64,000 nt of DNA from Eledone cirrhosa (lineage: Eukaryota), in contig OZ024745.1 in NCBI GenBank assembly GCA_964016885.1, positions 94,922,001 through 94,986,000 on the forward strand, given 5' to 3'. The notes under the pieces were generated by a model. That model searched no databases and was not told where the DNA came from. It worked only from the letters and a program-made list of their open reading frames with translations. Of the stretch, positions 10,540 through 63,305 are shown in pieces (positions within the stretch are counted from its first letter, which is position 1; each line of letters begins with the position of its first letter). Position numbers and translations under genes: made by a program.

Positions 10540-11092
10540 AATGAAGAGAATATACAGGCATGAATGGAATATACAGGCTACTATATGAAGTAGTAATGGC
10601 ATTCAGTTAGAACAATAACAACAATTACAACAATGCTAGTAATAAATTATTTGAGGAGACCCTGACATTACATTAGGTGGGGGGTATAGTGTATCTAAGA
10701 TTTCAGCGTGTAAAACTAGCTGACATGAAGCAGAAGTATAAGTTTGGCATGTCGTAGGGTGTATTGTATCAATTTTAAAGATAAGCCGGTGTTTATCACC
10801 AATATAGGTCAGGTGGCCGTAATGTTCAGTATTTATCTGACCGGCGAAGTATTTATCATTGAGTAGAATTTGTGTGGTCTACATTAGATGAGAATACAGT
10901 CTTTCTTTTCATCTTCAATACCATACATGTATAGGACAACACTGTCAAAGCTAAATGGTGGGCGAGTTAAAACAGAGGTTAAGGAGGTAATACATATATA
11001 TATATATATATATAAATATACATTATGAAGAGAGAAGAAACATTTAGATATAATTAGTAATAAAATGTATCATACCTAAACTGCTCCTAGAG

Positions 11093-11182
11093 TCCTCGAC
11101 TACGTAGTTTCGTGGCATAAACAAAAACAATACATCATAAAGATATAGAGTCCTTGCGAGGTCTGCCGACTTATCAAGAGGA
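11093..11182 (-). ncRNA. hammerhead ribozyme, U3:A8 core (593-bp unit, copy 1)
   Basis: tcctc TTGATAA gtcggca...tgccac GAAA ctacgtag TC gagga. Confidence 0.8.
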
Positions 11183-11685
11183 TACCTCATTTTACTAGTG
11201 TCAAGAACGCGTCTACACGACGTGAGAAAGAATCCCAAAAGGCGGAGGGGGAGATAGTCACGCGATATAACGGTCGAGAAACAGAGCTAAGCCTCTTATA
11301 ACCCCGAAGAAAATACCACGGAGGCGGAGGGGGTATTTATATCGAAGCCGTAGAAGAGGTGGTGAAGGAGGAGAGAAGTATGAGTAATGGAAGCTTTCCA
11401 GCAGTCCCCACACCTCAAAGATTGCTCGACCAGAGGGAGTTATTAACAATATATTTAGAAACACACAGATACATGCGGACACACACATATACATGAATGC
11501 ATCCGCACCCAACCGTGAGTTAAGGGTGCCAACTTCACCGATGTTGCTCAATGAATGACTGGGACAGACCAATCCGGTTGAACCAGACTGAACCAGTATC
11601 AGAGTTAAAAATACATTATGAAGAGAGAAGAAACATTTAGATATAATTAGTAATAAAATGTATCATACCTAAACTGCTCCTAGAG

Positions 11686-11775
11686 TCCTCGACTACGTAG
11701 TTTCGTGGCATAAACAAAAACAATACATCATAAAGATATAGAGTCCTTGCGAGGTCTGCCGACTTATCAAGAGGA
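11686..11775 (-). ncRNA. hammerhead ribozyme, U3:A8 core (593-bp unit, copy 2)
   Basis: Same motif 593 bp from copy 1. Confidence 0.8.
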
Positions 11776-12107
11776 TACCTCATTTTACTAGTGTCAAGAA
11801 CGCGTCTACACGACGTGAGAAAGAATCCCAAAAGGCGGAGGGGGAGATAGTCACGCGATATAACGGTCGAGAAACAGAGCTAAGCCTCTTATAACCCCGA
11901 AGAAAATACCACGGAGGCGGAGGGGGTATTTATATCGAAGCCGTAGAAGAGGTGGTGAAGGAGGCGAGAAGTATGAGTAATGGAAGCTTTCCAGCAGTCC
12001 CCACACCTCAAAGATTGCTCGACCAGAGAGAGTTATTAACAATATATTTAGAAACACACAGATACACGCGGACACACACGCGTTCTTGAGACTAGTAAAA
12101 TGAGGTA

Positions 12108-12197
12108 TCCTCTTGATAAGTCGGCAGACCTCGAAAGGACTCTATATCTTTATGATGTATTGTTTTTGTTTATGCCACGAAACTACGTAGTCGAGGA
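12108..12197 (+). ncRNA. hammerhead ribozyme, U3:A8 core (593-bp unit, inverted copy)
   Basis: tcctc TTGATAA ... GAAA ctacgtag TC gagga; 10-nt palindromic stem III ACTACGTAGT. Confidence 0.8.
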
Positions 12198-12439
12198 CTC
12201 TAGGAGCAGTTTAGGTATGATACATTTTATTACTAATTATATCTAAATGTTTCTTCTCTCTTCATAATGTATTTTTAACTCTGATACTGGTTCAGTCTGG
12301 TTCAACCGGATTGGTCTGTCCCAGTCATTCATTGAGCAACATCGGTGAAGTTGGCACCCTTAACTCGCGGTTGGGTGCGGATGCATTCATGTATATGTGT
12401 GTGTCCGCATGTATCTGTGTGTTTCTAAATATATTGTTA

Positions 12440-14300
12440 TATATATATATATATATACACATACATACACACACACATATATATACACACGCATGTGTAC
12501 ATAGACACATACATACACATCAATATACACTCGTACAAATACATACATATATGCAAAGAGATAAACATGCTGACTGTAATTATGGCAAAAAGGAAGGTAA
12601 AGTTACATTGTAGTAGTGATTTGAGAAATTCTTGGATTTAGGATCAAGTGATGGCAGCAGCTGAGAAGGAATAAGTTTATGTGTTGATGAGCTACTTACA
12701 GACATTTGTGTGGTAAAGACTTGTGAAGGCTAGAGTGTACTTAATGAGTATATTTCTGTAGTGATTTATGCAGGGTAGTGGGCATCCTAGTTTAAAGCTA
12801 TGTTGTGTTGGTTCGATTCACGGAGGTTTGAATCTTATGAATTTAGTGGCAATTCTATGTCTGCAGAAGATAGATCTTTCTAACTTATTGTTAAGTAGCC
12901 TTTTTACATTTTTGAGGATATACATTAGTTCTAGATCACATAGCCCGCAGTGGGACATACCTGTACTATAGGTTTTAGCAGCCGACAACTTCGACCAGTT
13001 AATGCTGTAGTTAGTGTTGCTCTCCTTCAGTTCCCATATTTTTTTGGCGAGGGTTGTGGAACCCATAAGTGCACGGTTTTTCATTGAGTGCCTGTGCACA
13101 TACCATCTTTTTTTAAAAGAAACAGACGAAGAAAATACCTATGGTTCAACCCAATCTTCAACTCCTCTATAAAAAAACTAGACTGCCCTCGATATTCTTT
13201 AAACTTATAGATAAACACTTCCCTATCTCACATAGATATCACAAAATACTCAATAGATTTACCATAAAACTCTCATACTCGACAGCAGCAAATATAGAAT
13301 CACACATACGCAGGATCAACCACAGAAATATCTCTAGTAAATCAACCGCACCTATGCATAACGTAGCACCAAATTATAAGCATAAACACATCACAACATC
13401 ACAACCGCAAGCGCATACAAACGCGCAACAGCAAAACCCCAATGGGCATATATCACAACCCACTTAAAACAGAGTACTAAACAGGAGTGTAGAAGCTGCA
13501 CAAAATAGCGCCTCAAACTGTAACTGTCACCTACCAGATAGGTGCCCATTGGCGAACAGATGTCTCGATTCGAGCCTAGTATACATGTGCACGGTCAACT
13601 CGGATAACTCCACCTGGAATTACATAGGATCCACCGCGGGTTCTTTTAAAAAAAGATGGTATGTGCACAGGCACTCAATGAAAAACCATGCACGTATGGG
13701 TTCCACAACCCTCGCCAAAAAAATATGGGAACTGAAGGAGAGCAACACTAACTACAGCATTAACTGGTCGAAGTTGTCGGCTGCTAAAACCTATAGTACA
13801 GGTATGTCCCACTGCGGGCTATGTGATCTAGAACTAATGTATATCCTCAAAAATGTAAAAAGGCTACTTAACAATAAGTTAGAAAGATCTATCTTCTGCA
13901 GACATAGAATTGCCACTAAATTCATAAGATTCAAACCTCCGTGAATCGAACCAACACAACATAGCTTTAAACTAGGATACCCACTACCCTGCATAAATCA
14001 CTACAGAAATATACTCATTAAGTACACTCTAGCCTTCACAAGTCTTTACCACACAAATGTCTGTAAGTAGCTCATCAACACATAAACTTATTCCTTCTCA
14101 GCTGCTGCCATCACTTGATCCTAAATCCAAGAATTTCTCAAATCACTACTACAATGTAACTTTACCTTCCTTTTTACCATAATTACAGTCAGCATGTTTA
14201 TCTCTTTGCATATATGTATGTATTTGTACGAATGTATATTGATGTGTATGTATGTGTCTATGTACACATGCGTGTGTATATATATATATGTGTGTGTATG

Positions 14301-14368
<68 letters not shown>
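12440..14368 (+). mobile_element. 5'-truncated Hydra-like PLE with inverted duplication of its 3' end
   Basis: 12440-13118 is the near-identical reverse complement of about 13645-14330; coding part lies at 13119-13944. Confidence 0.85.
13119..13944 (+). pseudogene. PLE RT C-terminus plus CxCx5C linker plus GIY-YIG endonuclease (disrupted)
   Basis: WFNP...KLIDKHFP.SHRYHKILNRFTIKLSYS; CNCHLPDRCPL; LVY...YIG; CGLC..E; FCRH. Confidence 0.85.
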
Positions 14369-14370
<2 letters not shown>

Positions 14371-14637
14371 GAGTTTATATTTAATTTGTTGGGATACAAC
14401 AAGCAAAATATTTTTATAACTGATACAAAGCACTCAACAAATTATTGGAGTAAATATACAATATGTTAACAAATGGAAACTATATTTATAAAACCATATT
14501 TATTTCATGATACATATTTCAAGGGCCACCAGAGCAAACAATAAATCTAATAACTCCACAATCCAGGAGATTCCAACCAGAATGGTTGCATTTTTAAAGG
14601 GTATGTCAATATTTATTTATAAAGCTAACCTATATTA

Positions 14638-14703
14638 TATTTTATCTGATGAAAGCGCACCATAGTTTGCTCTGGTGGCCCTTGAAATATGTTTAATGAA
14701 ATA
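14638..14703 (+). ncRNA. type I hammerhead ribozyme
   Basis: tattttat CTGATGA aagcgcacca...tggtggccctt GAAA tatgtt TA atgaaata; the inverted partial copy at 14460-14540 has GAAA tatgta TC. Confidence 0.7.
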
Positions 14704-14756
14704 AATATGGTTTTATAAATATAGTTTCCATTTGTTAGTATATTGCATATATATAC

Positions 14757-19795: not shown

Positions 19796-20526
19796 ATATA
19801 TATATCAGGAGATCAATCTCTAGCTCATTTACAAATATTCCACATCAAGAATAATTATACGAAATTCCTGAAACAAATTTTAGAGATAATGTGATAATTT
19901 TTCATCAAGAAATCTATAATTAGGAAGTGAGTTTTATGGCTATGTGGAGTTCTACAGTAACGGAAAGGAATCATTAAGGATTTTCAAGCCATTTTTATTA
20001 TTTAAGATTCTCTGGATGAATTTATTTTGCCTTAATTATAAATGACTGTTCACAATAATGCACATTTAATTTCAATTAGGAAACCTTTATTTATTACCTG
20101 ACTTCATTGGAAATTCATGATTCGATGAACGAGATATAAAAACAAAACAATGAATCGAGATTGATGCATTTCATGCATCTCAAATATATGTTTTTTAATC
20201 TCAACAATCGTTGCTGGGAAATCTCTGTTGAAATTTAGAATTTCCTATGAAATTTGAAGCTTTCTGATGATAATTGAAAAAAAATTAAAATGATAATTCT
20301 GAAAAATTGTTAATTCTAGTTCTTACATAATTACGGAATTAAAAAGGTACAAGGAACATTTAATTAGATCCATAATCATTAAACGTTTAATCGGGTCATT
20401 ATCCTGACAAATGTTCCATACGTAATATTGAAACCAAGTCATTAACATACCATACAAGCGTCCGTTAAGTGATTACTTGATCTACTGTATTTAGCAGCCA
20501 AATCTTTTTCTTATTATTTTCTACTG

Positions 20527-20910
20527 TCGGTGAATTGGCAGTTTCGGTAGAGGGTAGGACGCCATGCATTCCAGCATTCCATTCCATTACGGTCTGAGTT
20601 CAAATCCCGTCGCGGTTAACTTTGCCTTTCATCCTTACGGGGTCGATAAAATAAAGTACCAGTAATGCACTGGGTAATTGCTGGCCTTGTGCCTAAAGTA
20701 GAAACAATTATTTTCTACTGTCCGTGAATTGGCAGTATCGGTAGAGGGTAGGACGCCATGCATTCCAGCATAGTTATGTCCCTTTACGGTCTGAGTTCAA
20801 ATCCCGTCGAGGTTAACTTTGCCTTTCATCCTTACGGAGTCGATAAAATAAAGTACCAGTAATGCACTGGTAATTACTGGCCTTGTGCCAAATGTAGAAA
20901 CAATTATTTT
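20527..20910 (+). mobile_element. two tandem family A SINEs
   Basis: Two head-to-tail copies at about 20527-20712 and 20722-20910. Confidence 0.85.
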
Positions 20911-21929
20911 CTACTGTCTTCACAAAAGGAGAAATATATATTATAAACACACACATAAGCCCCTCCCCATACCTACACACGTAAAACATACTCTCATACG
21001 CACATGTGTGTATATTATATATGTATGTATGCATGTATGTTCTGGTTTTATAAGTTTATGAATTTTTACCAATAGAGAGAGAAAGTCGGTTTCTAACATA
21101 GAGTCCCTCATTATATATGCATTTATGTATGTATTTATGTATGTATCTATATATGTATGTATGTACGTATCTATGTATGTCTGTGTGTATATGTATGTAT
21201 GTATTTATGTATGTGTGTGTATATATGTATGTATTTATGTATATACGCATGTATGTAAGCATTTCTGTATGTATGTATGAATGTATGTAGTTATGTATGT
21301 ATGTTTGTATGTATGTGTGTGTATATATATATATATATACGTATGTATGTAAGTATGTTTGTACGCTTGTATGTGTGTATGTGTGTTTATGCCTCTGTGT
21401 GAATGAAAGATGAAATAATCACAGCCACGGCAACAAACAGCTAACGGATTACAGGCTATATTCACTTCTAATACATCGTTCCACTTAAAGAAGGACATTA
21501 AAAAATGTTAAAGTATAAAAGTATACATTATAAAAATTTTGTATTGCACAGCATATAATTTCTTCTCAATAAACATTTCTTTCTTTCTAGCAGCATTTCT
21601 TAATTATGGTTGTATTAACCATTTGTTTCATAAAATTAATAGATTTGAAAGAGCTACACAGTAGGCAAGTATGTTAGAATTCGTGATTTGTTGCTAAGAA
21701 ATAGTAAAACCAATATAATATATGTGTAAAACTAATATGTGTACTTTCGCGACTTATTTAAGAGGGACGAAATATACGTCTAGAAAAGTCCACATGATAT
21801 AGGTAAACATTATTATAATGTATCAATCAATAAAATATCATATGATAGAAAATATCGTTGATGAATAATCATAGTTGAAACTGTGTTAGAGTAACTTATA
21901 TCTGTTACATGGGACCGTGGCGCAAACAA

Positions 21930-36213: not shown

Positions 36214-37597
36214 ATTTATATATATAGACAGAGATAAATTCACACACACACACACATATATATATATACACACAAGTACGTATGAATATATATATGTATA
36301 CATTATGTGCATGTATGTGTGTGTGTGTATGTATGAGATGTGTCTGTGTATTTGTGTGTGTATATAAAGATACACATTTCATTTGTAAACAAAGCATGTT
36401 TTTAAAATGTCTTCTATATTAATTTTTTCCATTTCTATACATTTCAATTTAATTCAATATATTGACTTTGTGCACAAACAATACAAAAGTATATTATAAC
36501 GAAAGTTGAAGAAAAAATGGCGATTAAAGTATTTCGAGAGACAATAATAATATACAATATTCAATTCTAACGTTGGTACAAAGCCACATATTGTCTGAGA
36601 AGGGTGAAGTATATATGCTTGTATACATGCCTGGTCTCGTAACACTCGAGTGAGTCGTGGGAGCGTCGTATTGACATGCGGCGTTTCGAGTGCATTCTAA
36701 AACCTTGGTGACGTACATCACCTCTCCAGGTCTGAATACAGCATATTTCTTCTAGAGAAGGATAGAGAGTAAGAGAATGGAAGTGCTGAAGACATATAGA
36801 GGCTGAATCGACCCCCAGTACTTGACTGGTTCTTTGTTTTTTATTGATCTTGAATGGACGAAAATCAAAGTTGAGCTCGGTGAGATTTGAATCCAGAGAA
36901 TGGAGAGCCAGAATGTATATCGCAAAACATTCTATCAGACGTTATAAAGACTGCAAATTCGTCGCCTATGAAGTCAATATAACCGACCTCAATTTTTGAC
37001 CTAACCCTAAAAGATAAAGATAATTAGATGGAATTTGGACTAAAGTGGCAAAAGTGGCGTCGCCGTTCTACCATCTGTCGCTCTTAACACATAACTTTGA
37101 ATATCTCATACTAATGATTCTATCTCTGACAGAAGATCACATATGTTGAGTCAATATCAGTATCCGTGGAATTTGGCTAGCAATATATAATTTCTGCCAC
37201 TCCAACTACTTTATTTTATCATGATATCGAATGACAATATCGATCTTGATATATAATACAATATTAAATACGTTAATGATATATTGCATGTAAAATAAAC
37301 TCACACATATCTCCGAGAGAGATAGAGAGGGGGGTAGAGAGAGGGAGAGAGAGAGGGGGTGAGTAAGAAAAAGAGAGGGAGAATGATAGAGAGTAAGAGA
37401 AAGAGAGAAAGAGAGAGAGAGTGAGAGAGAGAAAACATGGTCCAAGTGTGTAGTAGAAAAGTTGCCCCGTGTTCCTAATGGCTATGTTTAAATAAACGGT
37501 AGATTATTTTAAGGATAACAATCTCTCATTTAAATATTATTCTTTTAAGATTATATATAATTGACTTAAGGATTAAAATCACTATGCAATGCTAAAT

Positions 37598-38216
37598 AAT
37601 TACTTCTTATATAGGCACAAGGCCAGCAATTTTGGTGGAGGGAAAAGTCGATTAAATCGACCACAGTACGTGACTGGTACTTTATTTTTTATCGACCCCG
37701 TAAGGATGAAAGGCAAAGTTAACCTTGGCGGGTTTGAACTCAGATCATAAAGGGCCGTAACTCTATGCTGCAAATCATGGCATCCGACCCTCTACAGATA
37801 CTGCCAATCTACCGCCCTTTTTTTAATATAGGCACAAGGCTAGTAATTTGGGGGGAGGGGAAAGTCGATTAAATCGACCCAGTGCATCACTGGTACTTTA
37901 TTTTATCGACCCCGTAAGGATGAAAGGTAAAGTTAACCTCGTCGGGATTTGAACTCAGACTGTAAAGGGCCCTAGCTCTATGATGCAAAGCATGGTGTTC
38001 GACTCTACCGATATTGCCAATCCAACGCCCCTGCAATGCTAAATAATTGTTTCTACTTTTGGCACAAGGCCAGTAATTAGCCAGTACATTACTGGTACTT
38101 TATTTTATCGACCCCGTAAGGATGAAAGGCAAAGTTAACCTCGACGGGATTTGAACTCAGACCGTAAATGGCCATAACTATGCTGGAAAGCATGGCGCCG
38201 ACCCTCTGCCGATACT
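37598..38216 (-). mobile_element. cluster of three family A SINEs
   Basis: Three co-oriented reverse-complement copies. Confidence 0.85.
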
Positions 38217-39084
38217 AGATCGTCGAAAGAAAGATTAACATATCCATGGTATTGAACCCGGGATTATTCGGCTTGTAGAAATAGCAGCTCAAACTAAAAC
38301 GACTCGCAGATCCCTGAGGTACGTACCTTATCGAGCAACGTTACTCTAACATCAATACTATTAATAATTACTTCTAACTTAGGCACAAGGCCACATTCTG
38401 CATGGCATAAATAGTCATTTTGATCACCTTCTGTACATGTTTTATCAATCCAAGGAGTGTGAAAAGCAAAGTTGCTTACGGTGGCTTTTGATTGAAAACG
38501 CAAAGACATAATGGAAAATTAGCTATATATGAACAATGAAAAGATTTGCAAAATTCTGTTCAATATTTTAAATACCTTGAGAACAGTCTAGTTGATTAAA
38601 TCAACACCTCTGTACGCATAGTACCTATTTAATTTTGTCTGACCTGGTACTAAATATATTTCGTCAGACACTTTTTCGTTCTGCCATTACCTTACAATTA
38701 GATAGTTTTGTCTATATAAAAGAGTACTTACTGTCATTATGGAAAATATAGAATAATGCTTTTAAATTTTGACATTTATCAACTTAAAAAGGAGATTTGT
38801 TTAACAAAACAGACAGTCTTCTGTTATTGAACAGATTAGTGAAAGTAATTTTCCCAGTAAAATTACATATTTGACACTCTGAAAATTAAGTTTGTAATTT
38901 TGACTGTTATTGAAAGTAAAATAAAAGATACTTACAAATTACAACTTGCAGCAATAAAGAGGTGTCTGTTTATATTGTTAGTATAAAGTTGAAGCTATTA
39001 TTAGGGGCAATGAGCAATTTCCTCTAATTTACATATTTGAAATGTTCATTTATAAATCACAAAGAGAATTATTTAACAAAATTG

Positions 39085-39700
39085 GTATTGGCAGTATCGG
39101 TAGAGGGTCGGACGCTATGCTTTGATGCATAGAGTTACGGCCCTTGACATTCTGAGTTCGAATCCAGCCGAGGTTAACTTTGCCTTTCATCCTTACGGGG
39201 TCGATAAAATAAAGTACCAATAATGCACTAGGTAATTGCTGGCCTTGTGCCAAAAAGTAGAAACAATTATTAATGAAATTTAGGCCGGTGGATTGGCAGT
39301 ATTGGTAGAGAGTCGGACACCATGCTTTGCAGCATAGAGTTACGGTTCTTTACGGTCTGAGTTCAAATCCCGCCGTGGTTAACTTTGTCATTCATCCTTA
39401 CGGGGTCGATAAAATAAAGTACCAGTAACGTACTGGGGTCGATTTAATCGACTCTCCTCTTTCCCGAAATTACTGGCCTAGTGCGTATACTAGAAATTAT
39501 TATTAGTGAAATTTGAGGGCGATAGATTCGCACTATCGGTAGAACCTCGAATAATATGTTACGTGGTATATAGTTACGTCCCTTTACGTTCTAAGTTCGA
39601 ATCTCGCCGAGGTTAATTTTGCCATTCATCCTTACGTGGTCGATAAAAAGTACCAGAAACGCAAAATTGTTCGCCTCGTTCCTAAATCAGAAACAATTAT
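39085..39700 (+). mobile_element. cluster of three family A SINEs
   Basis: Three co-oriented copies with A/B boxes. Confidence 0.85.
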
Positions 39701-39839
39701 TAATGAAATCCATAGAGCAGAAAGACTGCCAGCATGTAGGGCAAAATATTTTGTAGCATTTAATTACTGCCTTTTACATTCTATGTAACTTTACGTGTTC
39801 TCTAGTTTACTTGAATTATTTGGTGACAGAGTCAAATTA

Positions 39840-42484: not shown

Positions 42485-45400
42485 CTATTGGGGTGATAAC
42501 CCGTTTAGTTTTGGTTTAAATTTGTTAAGGAATAGATTTTCTTTGTTTATTCTTTGTTGCTGTGTGAACGAATCTGAGCACTTGTAGAAGGGGAAGATTT
42601 TAAAATTGGGTAGTGTCATTCCTGCGCAGTTCGCAATATGGCTGCTCAAGGGGATTTTTCTTGTGTTAGCGTCCCGGATTTGTTGGCAGTGGATGGTCAT
42701 TCTTTTGCGTAATGAGGTGCCCGTCTGTCCTATGTAGTTGTGTTTGCACCCACCGCAAGTTATTGCGTAAATCAAGTTCTCCGAGTTGCAGGTGAAATTG
42801 TTTTTTACTGTAAATGTTTGGCCATCTTTAAATGTAAATTTTTGTCCTTCAGTGAGGTAGAGGCACGTTCCACAGTTTGTTCTACCACATTCGGTAACTG
42901 TAGGGTTGAGGATTGGTTTGGGTATATTTGGTCCAGTGAGAATGCGTTTTAGTGATTTGGGTTGTCTTTTACTTTTAAGGATCTTGTGTTTCAAGAATAG
43001 ACTTCATTTTTACATCTTTAAGTAGGATGGGGAGGTTTTTGTGTAGGTGATCAAACATTTCGGTATTTCTGGGGTTGAAAGTGGATACATATGGCAGGGT
43101 GTTGAGTTGGTTTTCTGTTTTGGATTGTTAAGTTGATGGGGATTTAGGTGTTTTGCCCTGTCTATTCCATTGTTGATTATTTCAAGTGGAAAGGCTCTTA
43201 AGATAAGGGTGTCTTTTAGTTCCTTTAGTCTTTGCTCCCGTTTAGGTGGGTCTGATACTATGGTACATATACGTTTGGCCAAATTGTAAGGAATGTTAAG
43301 TTTTGTATGTTTTGGGTGACTTGATGTGAAAAAGAGGTATTGCTTGGAATCTGTGGGTTTATAGAATATATCTGTATCTAATTTCCCGTCTATTACAGAG
43401 ATGAGAATATCCAAGAAGGCTAATTCCTTGGGATTGGATTCCATTGTGAATTGTATGTTATTATCTATGTTGTTTATCATGTTTTTAAACATAGTAAGTG
43501 AGTTCATGTCTTCTTGCCATAGGATAAAGCAGTCGTCTAGATATCTTTTCCAATTGGCTTTGAGGTGTGTGTGGAAAGAGTCTCCAAATAAGAGAAGGGA
43601 CTGACTGTATATTTGTTGTTCATGGAATCCCATGACTAGGTTGGCATATGTGGGTGCTACTTTCGTGCCCATTGCAGTACCTGATACTTGTCTGTATGTT
43701 GAACCATTGAATGTGAAGTAGTTATTTTGTAGGATAAAGCGGAGTCCGTCAGTGATAAAATCTTTGTTGATGCGTGTCGGTATTTCTGATGGGTGTGTGT
43801 TAAGCCAGTATTGGACTGCTGTTATTCCATAGTTGTGGGGTATGTTTGTGTAGAGGTTTATTGCGTCAAAGGAGACAAGAATTGTATTTGCACTTACTGT
43901 TTTAGGGAGGTGCTTCAGCATGTCAAGGTCATCTCGTATGTAGCTCTGTATATGTTGTAGAAAGGATTTCAGTAGGATGTCCAGAAAGCTGCTAAGTATG
44001 TGGGTTTCACATGTAGGGCCTGCTATAATTGGCCTGAGTTTTAGGTCTTCTGGTGGTGTTAGTTCAATGTAATTGTTGGTTGAGGTGTCACATGCATCGT
44101 TTATGGGCTTACATTTGTGGAGTTTCGGTAAGCCGTAAAAAGAGCTTGTATTGCATTTGAAGTGGCTTATATAGTTAAACTCTTTTGTGGTTAAGCTGTT
44201 GCGGTATTTATTCAGTAAGGTCAAAAGGTTCCCCATTGTTTTGGTGTGTTTGTAGTTTTCTGTTTTTTCATAGTATGTGTTGTTTTCTAAAATGTTAAGT
44301 GCGAGGGTCCTATAGTAGTCCGTATTCATAATGACAACAGTACTGCCTTTATCGGCTTCTTTGATGGTTATCTCAGGGTTATTTCTAAGTATGAATAATT
44401 CTTCCCATTCGTGTGTAGATAGGTTTGATTTCGTGTGTTTATTTGTAATTTTTTCATAGGGAAAGTTGGTGATGTGTACGCAGTACGTGTCCAATGCTTT
44501 ATTTCTTCCCTTTTGTGGGCGCAGAAATTGCTTTTATTTCTAACCAGTGATTCGTCCTCAGTGTTGGTGTCGTTGTGGAAGAATTCCGTTAGTCGCAGCT
44601 TTCGGCAGTATTCCATGATGTCATCCTTCATTTCGGGGAAGTTTGGTTTACGTGGTGTAGGTGTAAATTTCAGGCCCTTACTTAAAATGTTGATTTGTGT
44701 GTTGGTTAGAGGTGTCTTTGAGAGGTTGATTATTTTTGGTTTCTCCCGAGGGGGGGGGGGGGCATCGAGTATCCTGGTATTTCAGGCTTTTCCCTAAAAA
44801 AGGAATGTAGTTTTGTGTGTGATTATATTTTGTTGGTCTGTTGCGTGTGGGTCTGTAGCTTGTTGTTTCATGAGGGTGAATGTGATGGTGGGAGTGGTAT
44901 GTGTTGTGGTTGTTGATGAGCAAGGGTTCTGTTGTTGGTTCATGTGGTCTGGGTGCGTTATTTCTGTGGTACAGAGTGTTGAGGTTGGGGGTTTGTCTTT
45001 TGTTGGATTGAGGGTGATGTCTGGTGTGGTTGTGGGTAAGTTCTGTTGTGATTTCAAGTGGTCTGGGTGGATTTCTTCTGAGGAATGTGGTGTGTGTGTT
45101 GTGAGTTGGATCTATGTTATTTCGTCGTTGGTTTATGTAGGGGGTATTTCTACGGAAACCTGTGTTGTGGTGGTTGGGTGTGTTTCTTTTGGCGTAGTTG
45201 GCCGTATTTGGTTTGTGTTGGTGGGGGATGTGCCTGTGGTTAGTGTGTGTTGGGTTTGGTGGTGTAAATGTGTCTGTTGTAGTTCTTGTTATGTTCAAAT
45301 GCTTTATAAAGGGGTTACCTGTTTGGTGCGTCCTTTTAAAGTCTTCTTCATATTTGAGGAACCAGTTTTTGGATTTTTCCCACCGTTTAAGGGAAATAAT

Positions 45401-52464: not shown

Positions 52465-52720
52465 CGCCAGTATTGCACAACGCCAGTATTGCACAACGCC
52501 AGTATTGCACAACGCCAGTATTGCACAACGCCAGTATTGCACAACGCCAGTATTGCACAACGCCAGTATTGCACAACGCCAGTATTGCACAACGCCAGTA
52601 TTGCACAACGCCAGTATTGCACAACGCCAGTATTGCACAACGCCAGTATTGCACAACGCCAGTATTGCACAACGCCAGTATTGCACAACGCCAGTATTGC
52701 ACAACGCCAGTATTGCACAA
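52465..52720. repeat. perfect minisatellite (CGCCAGTATTGCACAA) x16
   Basis: 16 identical 16-bp units with no spacers. Confidence 0.97.
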
Positions 52721-53460
52721 CGTAATCAAATAGGAGGTTATAAGTTAAGAAAGTATCATTTTCTTTAGAGTTGTTTTTTGAATATCTTATATCAATTATT
52801 AGATGTGCATTAAAATGATCAAATTGTATTCCATTCCATTTATACCAGATTCATCGATATATAATCGATATATAACAAACTAGAAAGAAATTTAAAAAAA
52901 AAAGAATTATCTCGGACAATAGGCATTTATCTAGAATAATCACTAAGTTTTAAGTGAATTAATTTAAAAGCCACCTGGTTTTCGAACCATATTTATTGGC
53001 ATCGTACATTTCCTCTGGCGTGCAGAAATACGAACGTATTTGAAGTAAAAGAGAGTGACATTAAAAGGTTTCGTTCCACAATAAAATACAGAGGCTGGTT
53101 GCATGATAAACATCAATTCATGAAGAGATATAACAGGAATATTTAAAGGAATTATTATCTTTAATGTACTACTCATTATGACTGACTCAAGATGAAGTAC
53201 ATTTGCAGATGTATACACGCTTTCCTATTAAAACGATCGGATTCTAATTTCCGCATTGTTCTCACGTGACAATATAATACACGTACGTTAATGGTTGTTG
53301 AAACAAATATTTCAAACAAATACTAGTCCTTGTGAACATGTATGCTTCTCTAAGAACATGCATGAATATATAAATATATAGAGAGATATATTTAAATGTA
53401 GGGTTCTGTATACAGACATGTTATATATAAATATATATTATTATTACTATATACTATAAA

Positions 53461-53648
53461 AGGTGGATTGGCAGTATCGGTGGAGGGACGGACGCCATGC
53501 TTTCCAGCATAGTTACGTCCCTTTACGATCTGAGTTCAAATCCCACCGAGGTTGACTTTGCCTTTCATCCTTACGGGGTCGATAAAATAAAGTACCAGTA
53601 ATGCACTGGATAATTGCTGGCCTTGTGCCTAAAGAAGAAACAATTATT
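53461..53648 (+). mobile_element. tRNA-derived SINE (family A)
   Basis: A/B boxes and body; a truncated copy also lies at 54746-54878. Confidence 0.85.
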
Positions 53649-53889
53649 TATTTATTTATATTTATATATATGTATCATTTCATATTTAATATACTATTAT
53701 ATCATCTCTAAGGTCCCCTTATGCCCCAGCACCCCCTGAACTTTCTCAATGCCTCCTCCCTCGGGGGTGGTAGCGCCTACTTTTAGAACCTCTGATCTAC
53801 AGCAAAGACACGAGTAAATAATCATACATATATTTAGTAAACGTTCCCTAAATCTTTATCTAAAGTCTGTATTAAGCCGTTAGGCCAAT

Positions 53890-56112: not shown

Positions 56113-56115
<3 letters not shown>

Positions 56116-56583
56116 TGTCAGGCTAAATCATTTTCTTTAATTTCTTTAGTCAAAATACGGCGATAGCTTACATTTATAATTTCAAACTCGCTCGCTGTTT
56201 CGAAAATATTCTTACTTGATATATATATCTATATCTCTCTCTATATATATAGATAGATATATAGATATATAGATATATATATAGATATATATAGATATAT
56301 AGATATAGATAGATATATATATCAAGTAAGAATATTTTCGAAAGAGCGAGCGAGTTTGAAATTATAAATGTAAGCTATCGCCGTATTTCGACTAAAGAAA
56401 TTAAAGAAAATTATTTACCCTGATAGTGGGGTTAAGAACCCTCGGAGAAATGGAAAAAGATGAGTATTGACGTACATGTACGTCAATACTCATCTTTTTC
56501 CATTTCTCCGAGGGTTCTTAACCCCACTATCAGGGTAAATAATTTTCTTTAATTTCTTTAGTCGAAATACGGCGATAGCTTAC

Positions 56584-56590
<7 letters not shown>
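56113..56590. repeat. overlapping inverted repeats including a perfect 228-bp spacerless palindrome (56363-56590)
   Basis: Centre CGTACA|TGTACG at 56476/56477; a second inverted pair at about 56113-56220 / 56321-56428 surrounds a TA/GATA tract. Confidence 0.92.
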
Positions 56591-56669
<79 letters not shown>

Positions 56670-56881
56670 GTTAAAGTGTACATCTACATATGTATACGGA
56701 AGTATTAGTATGCGTATAAATACACACATGTATACATATGTACATGTACTCAGCTTTTCACTAGACACTTTACAGTGAGTGTCAGCTAGTCTGTATGTAA
56801 CCACACAGGCGGACCGGGTTTTAGAGTCATACGAGTTTTCAAGGAAACACATTTCCTCTATTCTCCAGAGGGCCAGACAGG

Positions 56882-56926
56882 AATATTGGACTAGTTTCGA
56901 TGTTATTACATCTCATCAGCAATATT
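56882..56926 (-). ncRNA. type I hammerhead ribozyme (469-bp unit)
   Basis: aatattg CTGATGA gatgt-aata-acatc GAAA ctag TC caatatt. Confidence 0.92.
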
Positions 56927-57350
56927 TACCCATCTTCCGGCTTCTCTGGAGAATTGTAAAAGCACATATCGTTATATGCTTTTTCTATGAAAATTAGTAG
57001 TGGGTAGACTAATTTGCATAGAACGTGAGTCATTGTACGCACCGGTTCAGCGGAAACGATAAAAACAAATAACGAAACGAAATTAAATTTCGTTTCGCTT
57101 CTAACTCACTTTTGTATGACTGACGCTTAAACAATTAAGTTAAAGTGTACATCTACATATGTATACGGAAGTATTAGTATGCGTATAAATACACACATGT
57201 ATACATATGTACATGTACTCAGCTTTTCACTAGACACTTTACAGTGAGTGTCAGCTAGTCTGTATGTAACCACACAGGCGGACCGGGTTTTAGAGTCATA
57301 CGAGTTTTCAAGGAAACACATTTCCTCTATTCTCCAGAGGGCCAGACAGG

Positions 57351-57395
57351 AATATTGGACTAGTTTCGATGTTATTACATCTCATCAGCAATATT
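57351..57395 (-). ncRNA. type I hammerhead ribozyme (469-bp unit)
   Basis: Identical motif 469 bp away. Confidence 0.92.
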
Positions 57396-57896
57396 TACCC
57401 ATCTTCCGGCTTCTCTGGAGAATTGTAAAAGCACATATCGTTATATGCTTTTTCTATGAAAATTAGTAGTGGGTAGACTAATTTGCATAGAACGTGAGTC
57501 ATTGTACGCACCGGTTCAGCGGAAAAGATAAAAACAAATAACGAAACGAAATTAAATTTCGTTTCGCTGTCTGGCCCTCTGGAGAATAGAGGAAATGTGT
57601 TTCCTTGAAAACTCGTATGACTCTAAAACCCGGTCCGCCTGTGTGGTTACATACAGACTAGCTGACACTCACTGTAAAGTGTCTAGTGAAAAGCTGAGTA
57701 CATGTACATATGTATACATGTGTGTATTTATATGCATACTAATACTTCCGTATACATATGTAGATGTACACTTTAACTTAATTGTTTAAGCGTCAGTCAT
57801 ACAAAAGTGAGTTAGAAGCGAAACGAAATTTAATTTCGTTTCGTTATTTGTTTTTATCGTTTCCGCTGAACCGGTGCGTACAATGACTCACGTTCT

Positions 57897-57904
57897 ATGC
57901 AAAT
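57897..57904 (+). promoter_or_regulatory. octamer motif ATGCAAAT, candidate snRNA-type distal element (one per unit)
   Basis: Exact octamer about 90 bp upstream of the HHR, retained in diverged relatives at 8098 and 47975; function is inferred only. Confidence 0.4.
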
Positions 57905-57989
57905 TAGTCTACCCACTACTAATTTTCATAGAAAAAGCATATAACGATATGTGCTTTTACAATTCTCCAGAGAAGCCGGAAGATGGGTA

Positions 57990-58034
57990 AATATTGCTGA
58001 TGAGATGTAATAACATCGAAACTAGTCCAATATT
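57990..58034 (+). ncRNA. type I hammerhead ribozyme (469-bp unit)
   Basis: Perfect stems I and II, palindromic stem III ACTAGT, predicted cleavage after GUC at 58027. Confidence 0.92.
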
Positions 58035-58458
58035 CCTGTCTGGCCCTCTGGAGAATAGAGGAAATGTGTTTCCTTGAAAACTCGTATGACTCTAAAACCC
58101 GGTCCGCCTGTGTGGTTACATACAGACTAGCTGACACTCACTGTAAAGTGTCTAGTGAAAAGCTGAGTACATGTACATATGTATACATGTGTGTATTTAT
58201 ACGCATACTAATACTTCCGTATACATATGTAGATGTACACTTTAACTTAATTGTTTAAGCGTCAGTCATACAAAAGTGAGTTAGAAGCGAAACGAAATTT
58301 AATTTCGTTTCGTTATTTGTTTTTATCGTTTCCGCTGAACCGGTGCGTACAATGACTCACGTTCTATGCAAATTAGTCTACCCACTACTAATTTTCATAG
58401 AAAAAGCATATAACGATATGTGCTTTTACAATTCTCCAGAGAAGCCGGAAGATGGGTA

Positions 58459-58503
58459 AATATTGCTGATGAGATGTAATAACATCGAAACTAGTCCAAT
58501 ATT
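58459..58503 (+). ncRNA. type I hammerhead ribozyme (469-bp unit)
   Basis: Identical motif 469 bp away. Confidence 0.92.
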
Positions 58504-58787
58504 CCTGTCTGGCCCTCTGGAGAATAGAGGAAATGTGTTTCCTTGAAAACTCGTATGACTCTAAAACCCGGTCCGCCTGTGTGGTTACATACAGACTAGC
58601 TGACACTCACTGTAAAGTGTCTAGTGAAAAGCTGAGTACATGTACATATGTATACATGTGTGTATTTATACGCATACTAATACTTCCGTATACATATGTA
58701 GATATACACTTTAACTTAATTGTTTAAGCGTCAGTCATACAAAAGTGAGTTAGAAGCGAAACGAAATTTAATTTCGTTTCGTTATTT

Positions 58788-58828
<41 letters not shown>

Positions 58829-59045
58829 GGAGGTGAGTTTTATTGTAGTACAATAAAGCAATCACCCATCTCTCCCTCACCACCTTCACTCTCATCTCCT
58901 CCCCTTTTTTTCATCCTTTCCACACTCCTCTCTAAATAAAATATTTTTTTCCCAATATCACACATCAATCTAAAACTACTTCTCATATGTTGATTTAAAA
59001 CTGCACTATCCACAAGTGTTTTTTAGCCTTCATATCATGTTCTCC

Positions 59046-59118
59046 TGTTTTATCTGATGAAAACACAAATATTATTGCATGATGATGTTTGTTCTTGAAA
59101 TGCGCATAATAAAATACA
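59046..59118 (+). ncRNA. type I hammerhead ribozyme in 5' pLTR
   Basis: tgttttat CTGATGA aaacacaaatatt...gatgtttgttctt GAAA tgcgca TA ataaaataca. Confidence 0.8.
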
Positions 59119-59322
59119 TGGAACTCCTTTAACCATCTTTTGATCTTATATATTATGTATACTCCAGTCCTACAAACTGTAGAGTGCTTCTTATCCGATA
59201 TCTGCAATGCTTTATTGTACTACAATAAAACTCACCTCCTACATTAACTTGCTCCTTAACGGTTGAGCGCTTACTCTCATATTGGATACCTTTTGATGGT
59301 CTTTTACTTCTTCTTCTACAAC

Positions 59323-61719
59323 ATGGATTATTACAACATAACCAATTCAACTAAAGACATTCCTATACCTGGTAAATCTGAATTCACCAAACTTCTAATT
59401 GAAAAAACTGACTCCTTCGTAAGAAGACTTAGATGGATAGCCTATTTCTATGACCAGCTCCTAAAAGGGAACTTCTATACCAAAGAACATAACTTCCTCG
59501 ATCATCTATTTAATTCTAGAAGAAATCCTCCTTCCAACAAAAATCTAGTGCAATTCGAGGAAGAGTTAACTAAAATAATAAAAAATCTTAAATTCAAGAG
59601 ATACCCTTACAAAGGACAAGAGCACCTTGTAAATCTCAAGAACACAATTTCTAACATAAATTCCTCAAAAAATGTTTTAGTCCACTCTGACAAAACCAAT
59701 AACTTATATGGTATTTCCAACGATAATTATAACAACCTTATCCTAAAGGAACTTAGGAAAAAATATCGTAAAACCAACCATGAAAATTTAGAATACATAA
59801 ACCTTGAAGCCTCTGAGATTATGTCAAAACTTGGCATTGAAAAAAAGACCGAACCATTCCTCCCAAGAACTCCGAGGATAAATCTCAAGGATCACAAAAA
59901 CAATTTTCGCACTGAACTACCTGTTAGATTAATCGCCCCCTCTAAATCTGATCTGGGGGTTGTTAGTAAAGCCATCTTGGATAGAATTATCCCACAGGTT
60001 CGTTCTAATTGCTCTTCTTTGAACCTAAATTTATGGTTTGGTACTTCTGAAGTGATTGGCTTGTTCAACAAATTGGATAATAAAAACAAACTAAAATTTA
60101 TTCAATTTGATATTGCCAGCTACTATTCCTCCATTTCGCCTTCACTTCTCAATAATGCTCTATCTTTCGCACTTAAATATTCTGACATCACCACAGATGA
60201 ACTTCACATCATCCTCACCGCACGTAAAACCATCCTAGAGTTCAACAACGAATATTGGACCAGAGCCGATACCTCTAACAACTTCGACATCACAATGGGA
60301 GCATCCGATTCATCCCAATTGACTGATTTAATTGGTATCTTTATTTTGAACTCTTTGAGTCGGAAAATTCCTCAACTTCGCGGTGGAATTTATCGTGACG
60401 ATGGACTCTTTACTATCTTAAATTGCAATATAGTTAACCTTAATATTATTAAGAACAATATACGTAATCTCTTTAACCAATATAACCTAAAAATTGAATT
60501 TGATAACAATATCAAACTAGCTAATTTCTTGGATGTATCTCTTAATCTTGACACTGGCCTATATTACCCTTACCATAAAAACAATGAGAACCTAAATTAT
60601 GTTAACTTTAAATCTAACCATCCTACTAATATCAAGAATGCTATAGTTAGTAATATTGGAAAAAGAATATTTAACATATCTTCTAATAAAAACATCTTTG
60701 ATGCTAACGCCAATTACTATAATAACGCACTTTCTAAAGCCGGCTATCCTGATAAAATCAAATATAGTAAAGAAACAAATTCTAAAAGAACTTACAGTAG
60801 AATAATTAATCATGATCATTCCAATAACTTTAATAAAAGACCTAGATACAAAAACATAATCTGGTATAATGCTCCTTTCTCCATCTCTATTAATAACAAT
60901 ATTCCTAAATTATTCTTTAGTGCCTTAAATAAATGCTTCCCTCCCTCACATATCTATAGTAAAATATTTAACAAACACACCATAAAATTTTCTTATTCTA
61001 CATCCTCCAATATTTCCAACATTATCTCTAAACACAACAATACTAAATACTAAATCTCTTCCTTCCAACACTGAATTTCATAATAACAGTAATAGTACTC
61101 CCGACGTCATTGTAAACCCTAGGCTAATTTCTGTAAACCCAAATACAACGTCAAACACAACTTCGCTAAATGTTCATAATCCAACTCTAAATCAAGAAAC
61201 TATTATTCCTATCGCAAACAACTTCTCCAATCCAATTCCTTCTATAGATAACACTAGGTCACTCATTAATAATCTCTCTAATTGCAATTGCAATTGCCCT
61301 ATAAAAAATAAATGTCCTCTCAACAACCATTGTCTTGATAAAAACTTAATTTATGAATGTAAAGTTATAACTAACACCAATTCCTTCACCTATTTTGGCT
61401 CCACTTCCACGTTTTTTAAAGCTCGTCTCTATAATAATCATTCATCTTTTAAATACAAACTTAAAAGAACCAACACGGCTCTCTCAGAACTCATATGGTC
61501 CTTGAAAGACAAAAACATTAAATATACCATCTTTTGGAAGAAAGTTTCTTCTGCGTCTCTATCTAAAATCTGCAATCTCTATCTAAAATCTGCAATCTCT
61601 GCCTAAATGAAAAAATTACCATTATCTCTAATCTAGATTCTATAATAAATAGACGAATAGATTTGTTTTCTATCTGCTTGCATAAATTCCATAAGACATT
61701 TCACAAAGTATACAACTAA
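59323..61719 (+). pseudogene. PLE RT plus GIY-YIG polyprotein (~789 aa if repaired), frame broken by 7-bp and 20-bp tandem duplications
   Basis: SDKT; LKDHK..F....PVRLI.PSKS; FDIASYYSSI; ITMG; GIYRDDGL; NFLDV; WYNAPFS; then CNCPIKNKCPL, LIY...YFG, CNLC..E, ICLH in shifted frames. Confidence 0.92.
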
Positions 61720-62532
61720 TATTCAATTCTTTATCAATTTAGAATCTTTTCTCAAAGGCACATATACATACACCTCTTTTAAAATATACCCACCTTCCTA
61801 CCTTATTTCAAAGTGTATTATACACTCTATAATACTTGTTTACTCATTACCCTTACTCTATTTTCACCTTGTAAAATCCTTCGTAACATATACATTTGTT
61901 TTGACGCCAGATTATTCATCCTTAATTCATTATTTTTTTCTCCCCATCATCTAACTCATTCTTAATACATATTAACTCTTTCTTCGCACATATTATCAAT
62001 TCCTTCAATATACAAACCTTAACTTCACATTATTTTTCTCAAATCCTTCAATAAACAAACCTTAATAATTTTTTTCTCTTCGTTAATTTTCAAATTTCCA
62101 TAATACTTGTAAACATACACACTTTTTTGACGTTAGAATATTCATCCGCCATTCATTATTCTATTCTCTCTATCATCAAACTTTTTAATCTCAATACATA
62201 TTAACTCCCTCTCCTTCTTCGTACATATTTTTCCCTTCGTTAATTTTCAAATTCTTTTAATTTATACATTATCTTCCAACGGTTTTCAACCGCTCTATGT
62301 AAAACAATATATCTTTCTCAGTTATAAAAACTATCTCTCTCTCTCTATCACCCAACTCTCCCTCTCCACCTTCACTCTCATCTCCTCCCCTTTTTTTCAT
62401 CCTTTCCACCCCCCCTCTCTAAATAAAATATTTTTTTCCCAATATCACACATCAATCTAAAACTACTTCTCATATGTTGATTTAAAACTGCACTATCCAC
62501 AAGTGTTTTTTAGCCTTCATATCATGTCCTCC

Positions 62533-62605
62533 TGTTTTATCTGATGAAAACACAAATATTATTGCATGATGATGTTTGTTTTTGAAATGCGCATAATAAA
62601 ATACA
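62533..62605 (+). ncRNA. type I hammerhead ribozyme in 3' pLTR
   Basis: Same motif as 59046-59118. Confidence 0.8.
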
Positions 62606-62683
62606 TGGAACTCCTTTAACCATCTTTTGATCTTATATATTATATATATATATATATGTTGAGGTTATATTTAATATTTAATT

Positions 62684-62788: not shown

Positions 62789-63265
62789 TGGATTGACAGT
62801 ATCGGTAGAGGGTCGGACGCCATGCTTTCCAGCATAGTTACGTCCCTTTACGATCTGAGTTCAAATCCCGCCGAGGTTGACTTTGCCTTTCATCCTTACG
62901 GGGTCGATAAAATAAAGTACCAGTAATGCACTGGTAATTGCTGGCCTTGTGCCTAAAGTAGAAACAATTATTATTACTATATAACTATTATTATATAGGT
63001 GAAAAACAAATCCCGCCAAGGATTAACTTTGCCTTTCATCCTTACGGGGTCGATAAAAGAAAGTACCAGTAATGCACTGGGTAATTGTTGGCCTTGTGCC
63101 TAACGTAGAAACAATTATTATTACTATATATAGAAAGTTACGCCCCTTTACGATCTGAGTTCAAATCCGGCCGAGGTTAACTTTGCCTTTCATCCTTACG
63201 GGGTCGATAAAATAAAGTACCAGTAATGTACTGGTTAATTGGTGGCCTTGTGCCTAAAATAGAAA
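62789..63265 (+). mobile_element. cluster of three family A SINEs (one full, two 5'-truncated)
   Basis: Family A body at 62789, 63005 and 63136. Confidence 0.85.
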
Positions 63266-63305
63266 AAAAAAAAAATAAAAATAAATATTATTACTATATA
63301 TATAT

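Follow-up and report, generated by a model that had tools for sequence, protein, structure and literature searches.

Penelope-like elements (PLEs) are inserted with inverted copies and an optional tail of 30–40 bp, for which self-priming or endonuclease resolution has been proposed in the available parts of the literature (PMC3846280, PMC8557442). For the protein of an Anolis PLE (PAc), which is predicted to form a dimer, the available text reports that both strands are cut and extended in vitro, that two internal RNA start sites bound the tail, that hammerhead cleavage is dispensable in vitro and that no RNA reads ended at the cut (PMC11167929). Retrozymes are defined, and their dimeric hammerheads and the use of circles as templates described, in the accessible portions of PMC7229834 and PMC4209133, and they are regarded as non-autonomous PLE derivatives on the basis of homology and co-occurrence in the accessible part of a preprint (bioRxiv 10.64898/2026.07.22.740005). 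In these texts, the origin of the inverted repeats and tails of PLEs is left open and the insertion mode of retrozymes is stated to be unknown.

The window analysed here, a 64,000-nt stretch of the Eledone cirrhosa genome (contig OZ024745.1, positions 94,922,001 to 94,986,000), contains a 469-bp unit arranged as a head-to-head array between two (TA)n tracts, an array of a 593-bp unit and, adjoining the 469-bp array, an element at 58826–62640 that we take to be a PLE on account of its layout and of motifs identified by eye. Unit coordinates are counted from u1 = 58028 in the 469-bp family and from u1 = the equivalent of 12078 in the 593-bp family. The two sites at which the outer ends of the arms lie are designated A and B, and the arms are named after them. 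The features are as follows.

11013–12079, plus strand (sense = minus strand), 593-bp array, A arm; from an outer end at site A (u195–200) to an inner end at u320
12078–12439, plus strand, 593-bp array, B arm, whose outer end is at site B (u357–365)
56587–56663, no strand, left (TA)n flank; likely target site
56664–57568, minus strand, A arm of the 469-bp array; 1.93 units, outer end at site A (u225), inner end at u259, the foot of the hairpin
56919 and 57388 (minus strand) and 58466 (plus strand), further hammerhead cores from a core scan
57567–57568, no strand, head-to-head junction; CT fits both arms
57567–58791, plus strand, B arm of the 469-bp array; 2.6 units, inner end at u9, outer end at site B (u295)
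57979–58049, plus strand, type I hammerhead motif; Rfam HH9, 31.8 bits, E 6.6e-6, gathering score of 52 not reached
58252–58258, plus strand, site A of the middle unit (u225–231); fixed 3' end of one arm
58755–58783, plus strand, 13-bp hairpin predicted from the fold (u259–287); commonest arm stop
58791–58795, plus strand, site B (u295–299), at which the second arm has its fixed 3' end; TA-like microhomology
58792–58825, no strand, right (TA)n flank; common to the array and the next insertion
58826–62640, plus strand, neighbouring PLE; inverted B arm of about 35 nt (58826–58860, a copy of about 59208–59244) and a long A arm reaching to the equivalent of 59151

The minus arm of the 469-bp array (56664–57568) is the reverse complement of 57817–58721. 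The period is 469, three positions vary among the copies, and no coding frame of at least 120 aa was found in the array. A previous sequence-only reading had placed the start of the plus arm 8 nt beyond the predicted hammerhead cut, with CT common to both arms, and these coordinates are correct. The arm overlap of 37 nt that it had described was also confirmed for this locus; it spans u259–u295 and contains the 13-bp hairpin. The left arm of the 593-bp array has an inner end equivalent to 12397, which gives the claimed overlap of 43 nt. These single-locus facts of geometry hold for both arrays. On its left side, the 469-bp array is adjoined by nested palindromes (56113–56590), including a perfect 228-nt self-inverted stretch at 56362–56589.

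Each tandem unit of 469 bp contains a type I hammerhead motif scoring below the Rfam gathering score, at which there was no match in the window. The GUC at 58025–58027 places the predicted cut at 58027/58028, and the exact hammerhead 33-mer is present in 1446 copies in the genome. Stem II is GAUGU/ACAUC in most loci of the 469-bp family and GUUGU/ACAAC in 33, a compensatory change affecting both sides, and the hammerhead triplet is GUC or GUU. This compensatory change and the two triplets indicate, as far as sequence comparison goes, that the motif is probably under selection. In the 593-bp unit, whose 30-mer occurs in 5510 genome copies, the window copy contained no hammerhead core and the Rfam matches in four loci included no ribozyme; the 593-bp array therefore cannot back the ribozyme part of the sequence-only reading. 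A short inverted element at 14367–14750, located between (TA)n tracts, has 92-nt arms (14450–14541 versus 14661–14752) and a hammerhead-like core at 14646. Other repeats in the window include a dispersed family of about 190 bp that often occurs in short tandem runs (20513–20918, 37595–39709, 53422–53673, 62789–63298 and others) and a perfect 16-bp minisatellite of 16 copies (52465–52722).

The neighbouring PLE served as a benchmark. It contains a hammerhead with a predicted cut at 59108/59109 and an RT-like frame at 59260–61053, its sites A and B are at 59151 and 59244, respectively, and its ends are present in about 6000 genome copies. Pfam returned no RT match for the frames of this element, and the Atlas neighbours of its frame were partly RVT_1. 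An additional PLE, with RT (RVT_1) and GIY-YIG frames at 42485–44533 (minus strand), is distant from the frame at 59260. The segment 12426–14338 is an inverted 3' fragment of another PLE-like element with a GIY-YIG-like frame at 13468–13944 (motif identified by eye); its two outer ends apparently share one position in a CA/TA-rich tail, which sets it apart from the arrangement of the A and B ends described below.

All loci sampled for comparison are located on contig C1 and come from among the first 100 matches listed in each case, to which the counts of loci, arms, ends and joints given below refer. For the 469-bp family, these comprised a hammerhead-selected set, 40 loci selected by the A end, 20 selected by the B end and, as a retest, 40 more selected by the B end, which were drawn after the retest criteria had been fixed. 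The 593-bp family was represented by 40 loci selected by the 30-mer and 30 selected by the B end. Arm calls were obtained by aligning the loci dynamically to the unit in circular form. Arms shorter than 60 nt were kept only when they ended at A or B, and for this reason counts that omit these arms are reported as well. Before counting, duplicates were excluded (L042, L131, 7 repeats among L238–L267 and the second copy in L079). L111, which is broken by a microsatellite, and L063–L065 and L067, which represent the interior or far end of long arrays, were also left out. L041/L042, L130/L131 and the copies in L079 each show the same insertion with the same junctions at two nearby places and represent local or assembly duplicates.

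In all three families, the arms have fixed outer ends, one arm at A and the other at B. Among the matches listed for the 469-bp family, 85 of the 91 two-arm loci in which both ends were visible had one A and one B end (AB), none had two A ends (AA) or two B ends (BB), and the remaining six had one end elsewhere, whereas independent ends would give AB in at most half of the loci. The proportion was similar when both arms were required to be at least 60 nt long (73/79), among loci that were not selected by an end (21/22) and in the retest (25/27). Two further exceptions, L030 and L038, in which a short second arm ends elsewhere, were counted as one-arm insertions; one-arm calls numbered 13 and 21 among the listed loci that were not end-selected. 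The A ends of 88 of the 89 A arms in complete two-arm loci of the 469-bp family fell within u225–231, and the B end joined to (TA)n had 2056 matches in the genome. In the 593-bp family, 27 of the 30 listed loci were AB and three had one end elsewhere, again with no AA or BB. For the PLE, the A-end pattern matched one place; among 30 listed loci selected by the B end, 7 were not resolved within 1.5 kb and, of the 23 resolved, 21 were AB, one had its other end elsewhere and one was a three-part insertion. One BB insertion, the second insertion in L236 (85–92% identity), was found in another PLE sample. The distance between A and B is about 70 nt in the 469-bp family, 163 nt in the 593-bp family and 93 nt in the neighbouring PLE. 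Either arm can be on the left or the right (60 versus 54 among the listed loci), and 133 junctions were head-to-head, with one tail-to-tail junction at a nested insertion. This one-A-one-B rule, which the sequence-only reading had overlooked, is the strongest signal in the data, and it is this rule, rather than the 8-nt offset or the overlap of about 40 nt, that constitutes the footprint.

The A–B stretch of the 593-bp unit (11434–11626, minus strand) has a good predicted fold (z −4.5), with A and B on opposite strands of the closing helix. A general rule in which A faces B in one helix was rejected, as such a helix was predicted in the 593-bp unit and in neither the 469-bp unit nor the PLE.

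The inner ends, in contrast to the outer ends, are scattered. The sequence-only reading had expected ends to be enriched at the cleavage site, and this expectation was not supported: among the 230 listed inner ends of the 469-bp family, none fell at u1–3 (microhomology would allow such a position for at most two) and 177 of the 230 arms crossed the predicted cut, which argues that the predicted cut usually does not set the boundary of the insert. A weak excess in u−4 to +25 (24/230 versus 14.2 expected in the pooled listed samples, p 0.011) came from the first samples (19/164 versus 10.3) and failed the retest set beforehand (5/66 versus 4.0). In the predicted hammerhead helix, u4–25 belong to the 3' strand, so that ends there may be explained equally by stalling. 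At four loci (L138, L139, L147 and L159), both arms end near the cut, and three of these have lengths of about 210–220 and 290–305 nt, as would be expected for a fully copied linear monomer. The PLE shows that a true RNA 5' end is visible when it is present: 17 of 38 listed inner ends are concentrated within 8 nt (58982–58989) upstream of the hammerhead, a sharp peak that is likely to be the transcript start and has no counterpart in the 469-bp family. One of the 38 PLE arms (L275) begins exactly at the predicted cut.

The largest pile-up of inner ends in the 469-bp family was found in the hairpin, where 19 of the 230 listed ends fell in u261–268 (the 95th percentile of the null was 12). A arms ended in u255–280 in 13 of 107 cases versus 4.6 expected, in an interval narrowed post hoc, and 14 of 115 B arms versus 8.4 expected stopped in the hairpin (both among the matches listed). 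The 37-nt overlap in the window arises because the A arm stops in the hairpin and the fixed site B is located 30–40 nt downstream. Consequently, the overlap of about 40 nt, which had been proposed to be a recurrent and fixed geometry, is not a constant: overlaps of 25–55 nt were found in 10 of 85 listed loci of the 469-bp family (5.6 expected if uniform, p 0.054), in 5 of 25 loci of the retest (p 0.022) and in 2 of 27 loci of the 593-bp family. A cut-proximal end and such an overlap occurred together in none of the 85 other listed loci. B arms stopped at site A in 16 of 115 cases versus 10.7 in the 469-bp family (p 0.08), in 2 of 55 versus 4.4 in the 593-bp family and, for the PLE, in 6 of 19 (59139–59165, around site A, an interval chosen post hoc; p 3e-4 on 6/10, also post hoc), again among the matches listed. 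An inner-end peak after TATAAATA at u465 in the 593-bp family was rejected, because 16 of 64 listed ends versus 6.4 in the first sample, which was biased by the mode of selection, became 3 of 38 versus 3.2 in the second.

Outer ends in AB loci lay within 12 nt of TATATA in 219 of 228 listed cases. Flanking direct repeats of at least 10 nt containing non-TA letters were found in 31 of 114 listed loci and were mostly weak; clear target duplications outside pure TA were found at L039 (16 nt) and L061 (13 nt). Microhomology of at least 2 nt was present at 31 of the 73 clean joints listed (about 16 expected by chance), and the 58 other joints contained inserted or unaligned bases. Short tandem slips of the unit at the junction (L037:1691–1720 and L101:4306–4400) resemble repeated re-priming during joining.

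The two arms of a locus differ from one another by 1.1% and from other loci by 3.4%, and in 36 of 49 loci no other arm matched better than that of the same locus (both among the matches listed). Locus-private letters were common to both arms at 19 positions (11 loci) and restricted to one arm at 95, and in-register variants marking a linear multimeric template were found at 1 of the 22 listed sites. These sequence patterns would fit a uniform template (a young array or a circle) followed by mutation; alternatively, the arms could be alike because a single source locus supplied two RNAs or because one arm was later converted by the other. No correlation was seen between the lengths of the two arms (rho 0.06 and 0.11). 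Two places on contig C1, namely L062–L065 (95.62–95.66 Mb; arms of more than 35 kb) and L066–L067 (127.66–127.69 Mb; arms of about 22 kb), contain very long arms of the 469-bp family with block-wise repeated variants and appear to be retrozyme insertions turning into satellites. Long arrays were rejected as single RT products because such block-wise repetition is typical of later expansion.

Taken together, we consider it probable that the 469-bp array represents the head-to-head insertion of a non-LTR retrozyme, the arms of which were started at two fixed sites by a Penelope-like RT/endonuclease priming at both cut ends. A putative PLE protein, probably a dimer, would bind the RNA between A and B and cut both (TA)n strands in a staggered manner, and one 3' end would prime at A and the other at B, aided by a few TA-like bases. 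Both RTs would then copy upstream on an uncut circle or a uniform multimer, usually through the hammerhead, and each would stop either by chance, with the u259–287 hairpin as a preferred place and the hammerhead helix as a somewhat preferred one, or at a true RNA end, after which the two cDNA ends would be joined through 0–4 bases in common. At the window locus, the A arm would have stopped in the hairpin, 37 nt inside site B, and the B arm at u9. The proposal of the sequence-only reading that both broken (TA)n ends were primed is upheld by the fixed outer ends against TA repeats, by some target duplications and by the junction microhomology, and its view of the product as a footprint of PLE/retrozyme integration is likewise supported. 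The link of the two repeat families to PLEs is inferred from the geometry that they have in common with the neighbouring element.

That reading had combined these points with L1-type twin priming on one linear multimer with a hammerhead-made 5' end, which would give consecutive arms with an overlap of about 40 nt. In L1 twin priming, the arms copy consecutive parts of the RNA, starting from a variable internal site. In the present arrays, the two starts have fixed positions, and for the most part one and the same stretch is copied in both arms. The pooled excess just past the cut, the four loci with both arms ending near it, the PLE arm that starts exactly at its predicted cut and the A arms and retest overlaps associated with the hairpin are all in its favour. 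They are outweighed by the lack of ends at u1–3 among the 230 listed, the many arms crossing the cut, the failed retest and the sharp peak that a true RNA end gives in the PLE; in addition, helix stalling accounts equally well for the ends at u4–25, B arms also stop in the hairpin, overlaps of this size are a minority, the two features never coincide at other listed loci, and no ribozyme was found in the 593-bp unit. As a rule, this explanation is largely refuted, and we regard it as quite unlikely. Priming at the fixed sites could instead have occurred on two separate RNA molecules held in an asymmetric complex. The uncorrelated arm lengths are consistent with this, as are the scarcity of B-arm stalling at A in both repeat families and the usual copying of one stretch by both arms, for which strand displacement would be needed on a single RNA. 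However, 6 of the 19 listed PLE B arms stop at site A, private letters and subfamily are common to the arms of one locus, and the strict exclusion of AA and BB is simpler with one RNA, so that two RNAs seem unlikely. The halting of PLE B arms at A suggests that both primers were on one RNA; the earlier claim of a single RNA is thus supported in part, and we lean towards both primings having used one molecule.

Another alternative is self-priming or snap-back, in which a single priming event is followed by fold-back copying and the tail derives from endonuclease resolution (available parts of PMC3846280 and PMC8557442). In its favour, the inner ends lie no more than 15 nt apart in 9 of 59 listed loci and in 4 of 18 (3.9 and 0.9 expected), and the top stop site is a hairpin. 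Under this scheme, a copy of the first strand must be nested in that strand, yet at many loci it is the A arm that extends further upstream and the B arm alone that contains the A–B stretch. Such non-nested arms are found in the 593-bp array of the window (1067 versus 362 nt), at L117, L128, L190 and L194 and at the PLE loci L283, L292, L293 and L295, which makes snap-back very unlikely. Fold-back chimeras arising from library preparation or assembly would also produce inverted arrays. The window is rich in palindromes, and no reads across the junction at 57567 were seen in 441 nt around it among the records covered, which consist of short contigs and RAD-seq and are probably from other individuals. 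On the other side, the outer ends are fixed and complementary in three families, there are target duplications, the flanks are not mirrored, the B end joined to (TA)n was seen as loose ends in contigs from one sample (three runs), and a second study contained 7 raw reads, with 4 starts, of a different inverted joint of the 469-bp family. A fold-back artefact is unlikely for this class of arrays and is, as a rival explanation, hardly credible.

Fixed-site priming by a PLE enzyme thus remains the preferred reading. A broader form of it is put forward only tentatively, our judgement leaning slightly against it: PLEs may depend on obligate two-site twin priming, in which a dimer on one RNA primes with each subunit at its own site and the tail equals the A–B distance. 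Retrozyme circles would then routinely yield head-to-head arrays, and unrelated non-coding repeats, with or without a ribozyme, would parasitise the machinery through an A/B pair. The strict one-A-one-B rule, seen in about 130 insertions of three families, reduces the inverted repeats and tails to a single testable mechanism, and the integration footprint ties retrozymes to the PLE machinery. It also gives annotators exact repeat ends and provides two RNA sites to mutate for in vitro work.

A pairing of one site per arm was not found in the titles and abstract openings of the literature searched. The arrangement resembles the inverted pLTR and tail of PLEs as described in the available texts, with a head-to-head inverted 5'-truncated copy and an extension at one end, as well as (TA)n targets, target duplications and non-autonomous head-to-tail passengers (PMC3846280, PMC8557442). 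It differs in that the extension is 70, 93 or 163 nt instead of 30–40 bp, and in that one arm with and one without the extension are found in nearly every two-arm insertion, whereas the published tail is optional (same sources, available parts). With the Anolis PLE (PAc), the present loci share two internal starts, priming on both strands, AT-rich targets, a predicted dimer and the dispensability of hammerhead cleavage (PMC11167929). The available text of that study describes no difference in start site between the strands and no pairing of sites per insertion, and the evidence presented here is genomic and extends to non-coding repeats.

Like animal non-LTR retrozymes, as presented in the accessible parts of PMC7229834 and bioRxiv 10.64898/2026.07.22.740005, the 469-bp family carries one type I hammerhead per tandem unit, lacks a coding frame and ranges from dimers to large multimers for which mobilisation by PLEs has been proposed. 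Neither inverted two-arm insertions nor fixed ends are described in the accessible parts of these two texts, and the word 'inverted' occurs 0 times in PMC7229834. The 593-bp family obeys the same rule of ends with no ribozyme detected, unlike retrozymes. As in L1 twin priming, both DNA ends prime and the cDNAs are joined head-to-head through short microhomology; in L1, one end is at the RNA 3' terminus and the other is internal, whereas here both are internal and fixed, with no poly(A) (available part of PMC2912911). Consecutive arms were found only in a minority of the listed PLE loci (6/19). The one-A-one-B rule is therefore a new form of the known tail and inversion signature of PLEs, one that reaches retrozymes and a repeat in which no ribozyme was detected.
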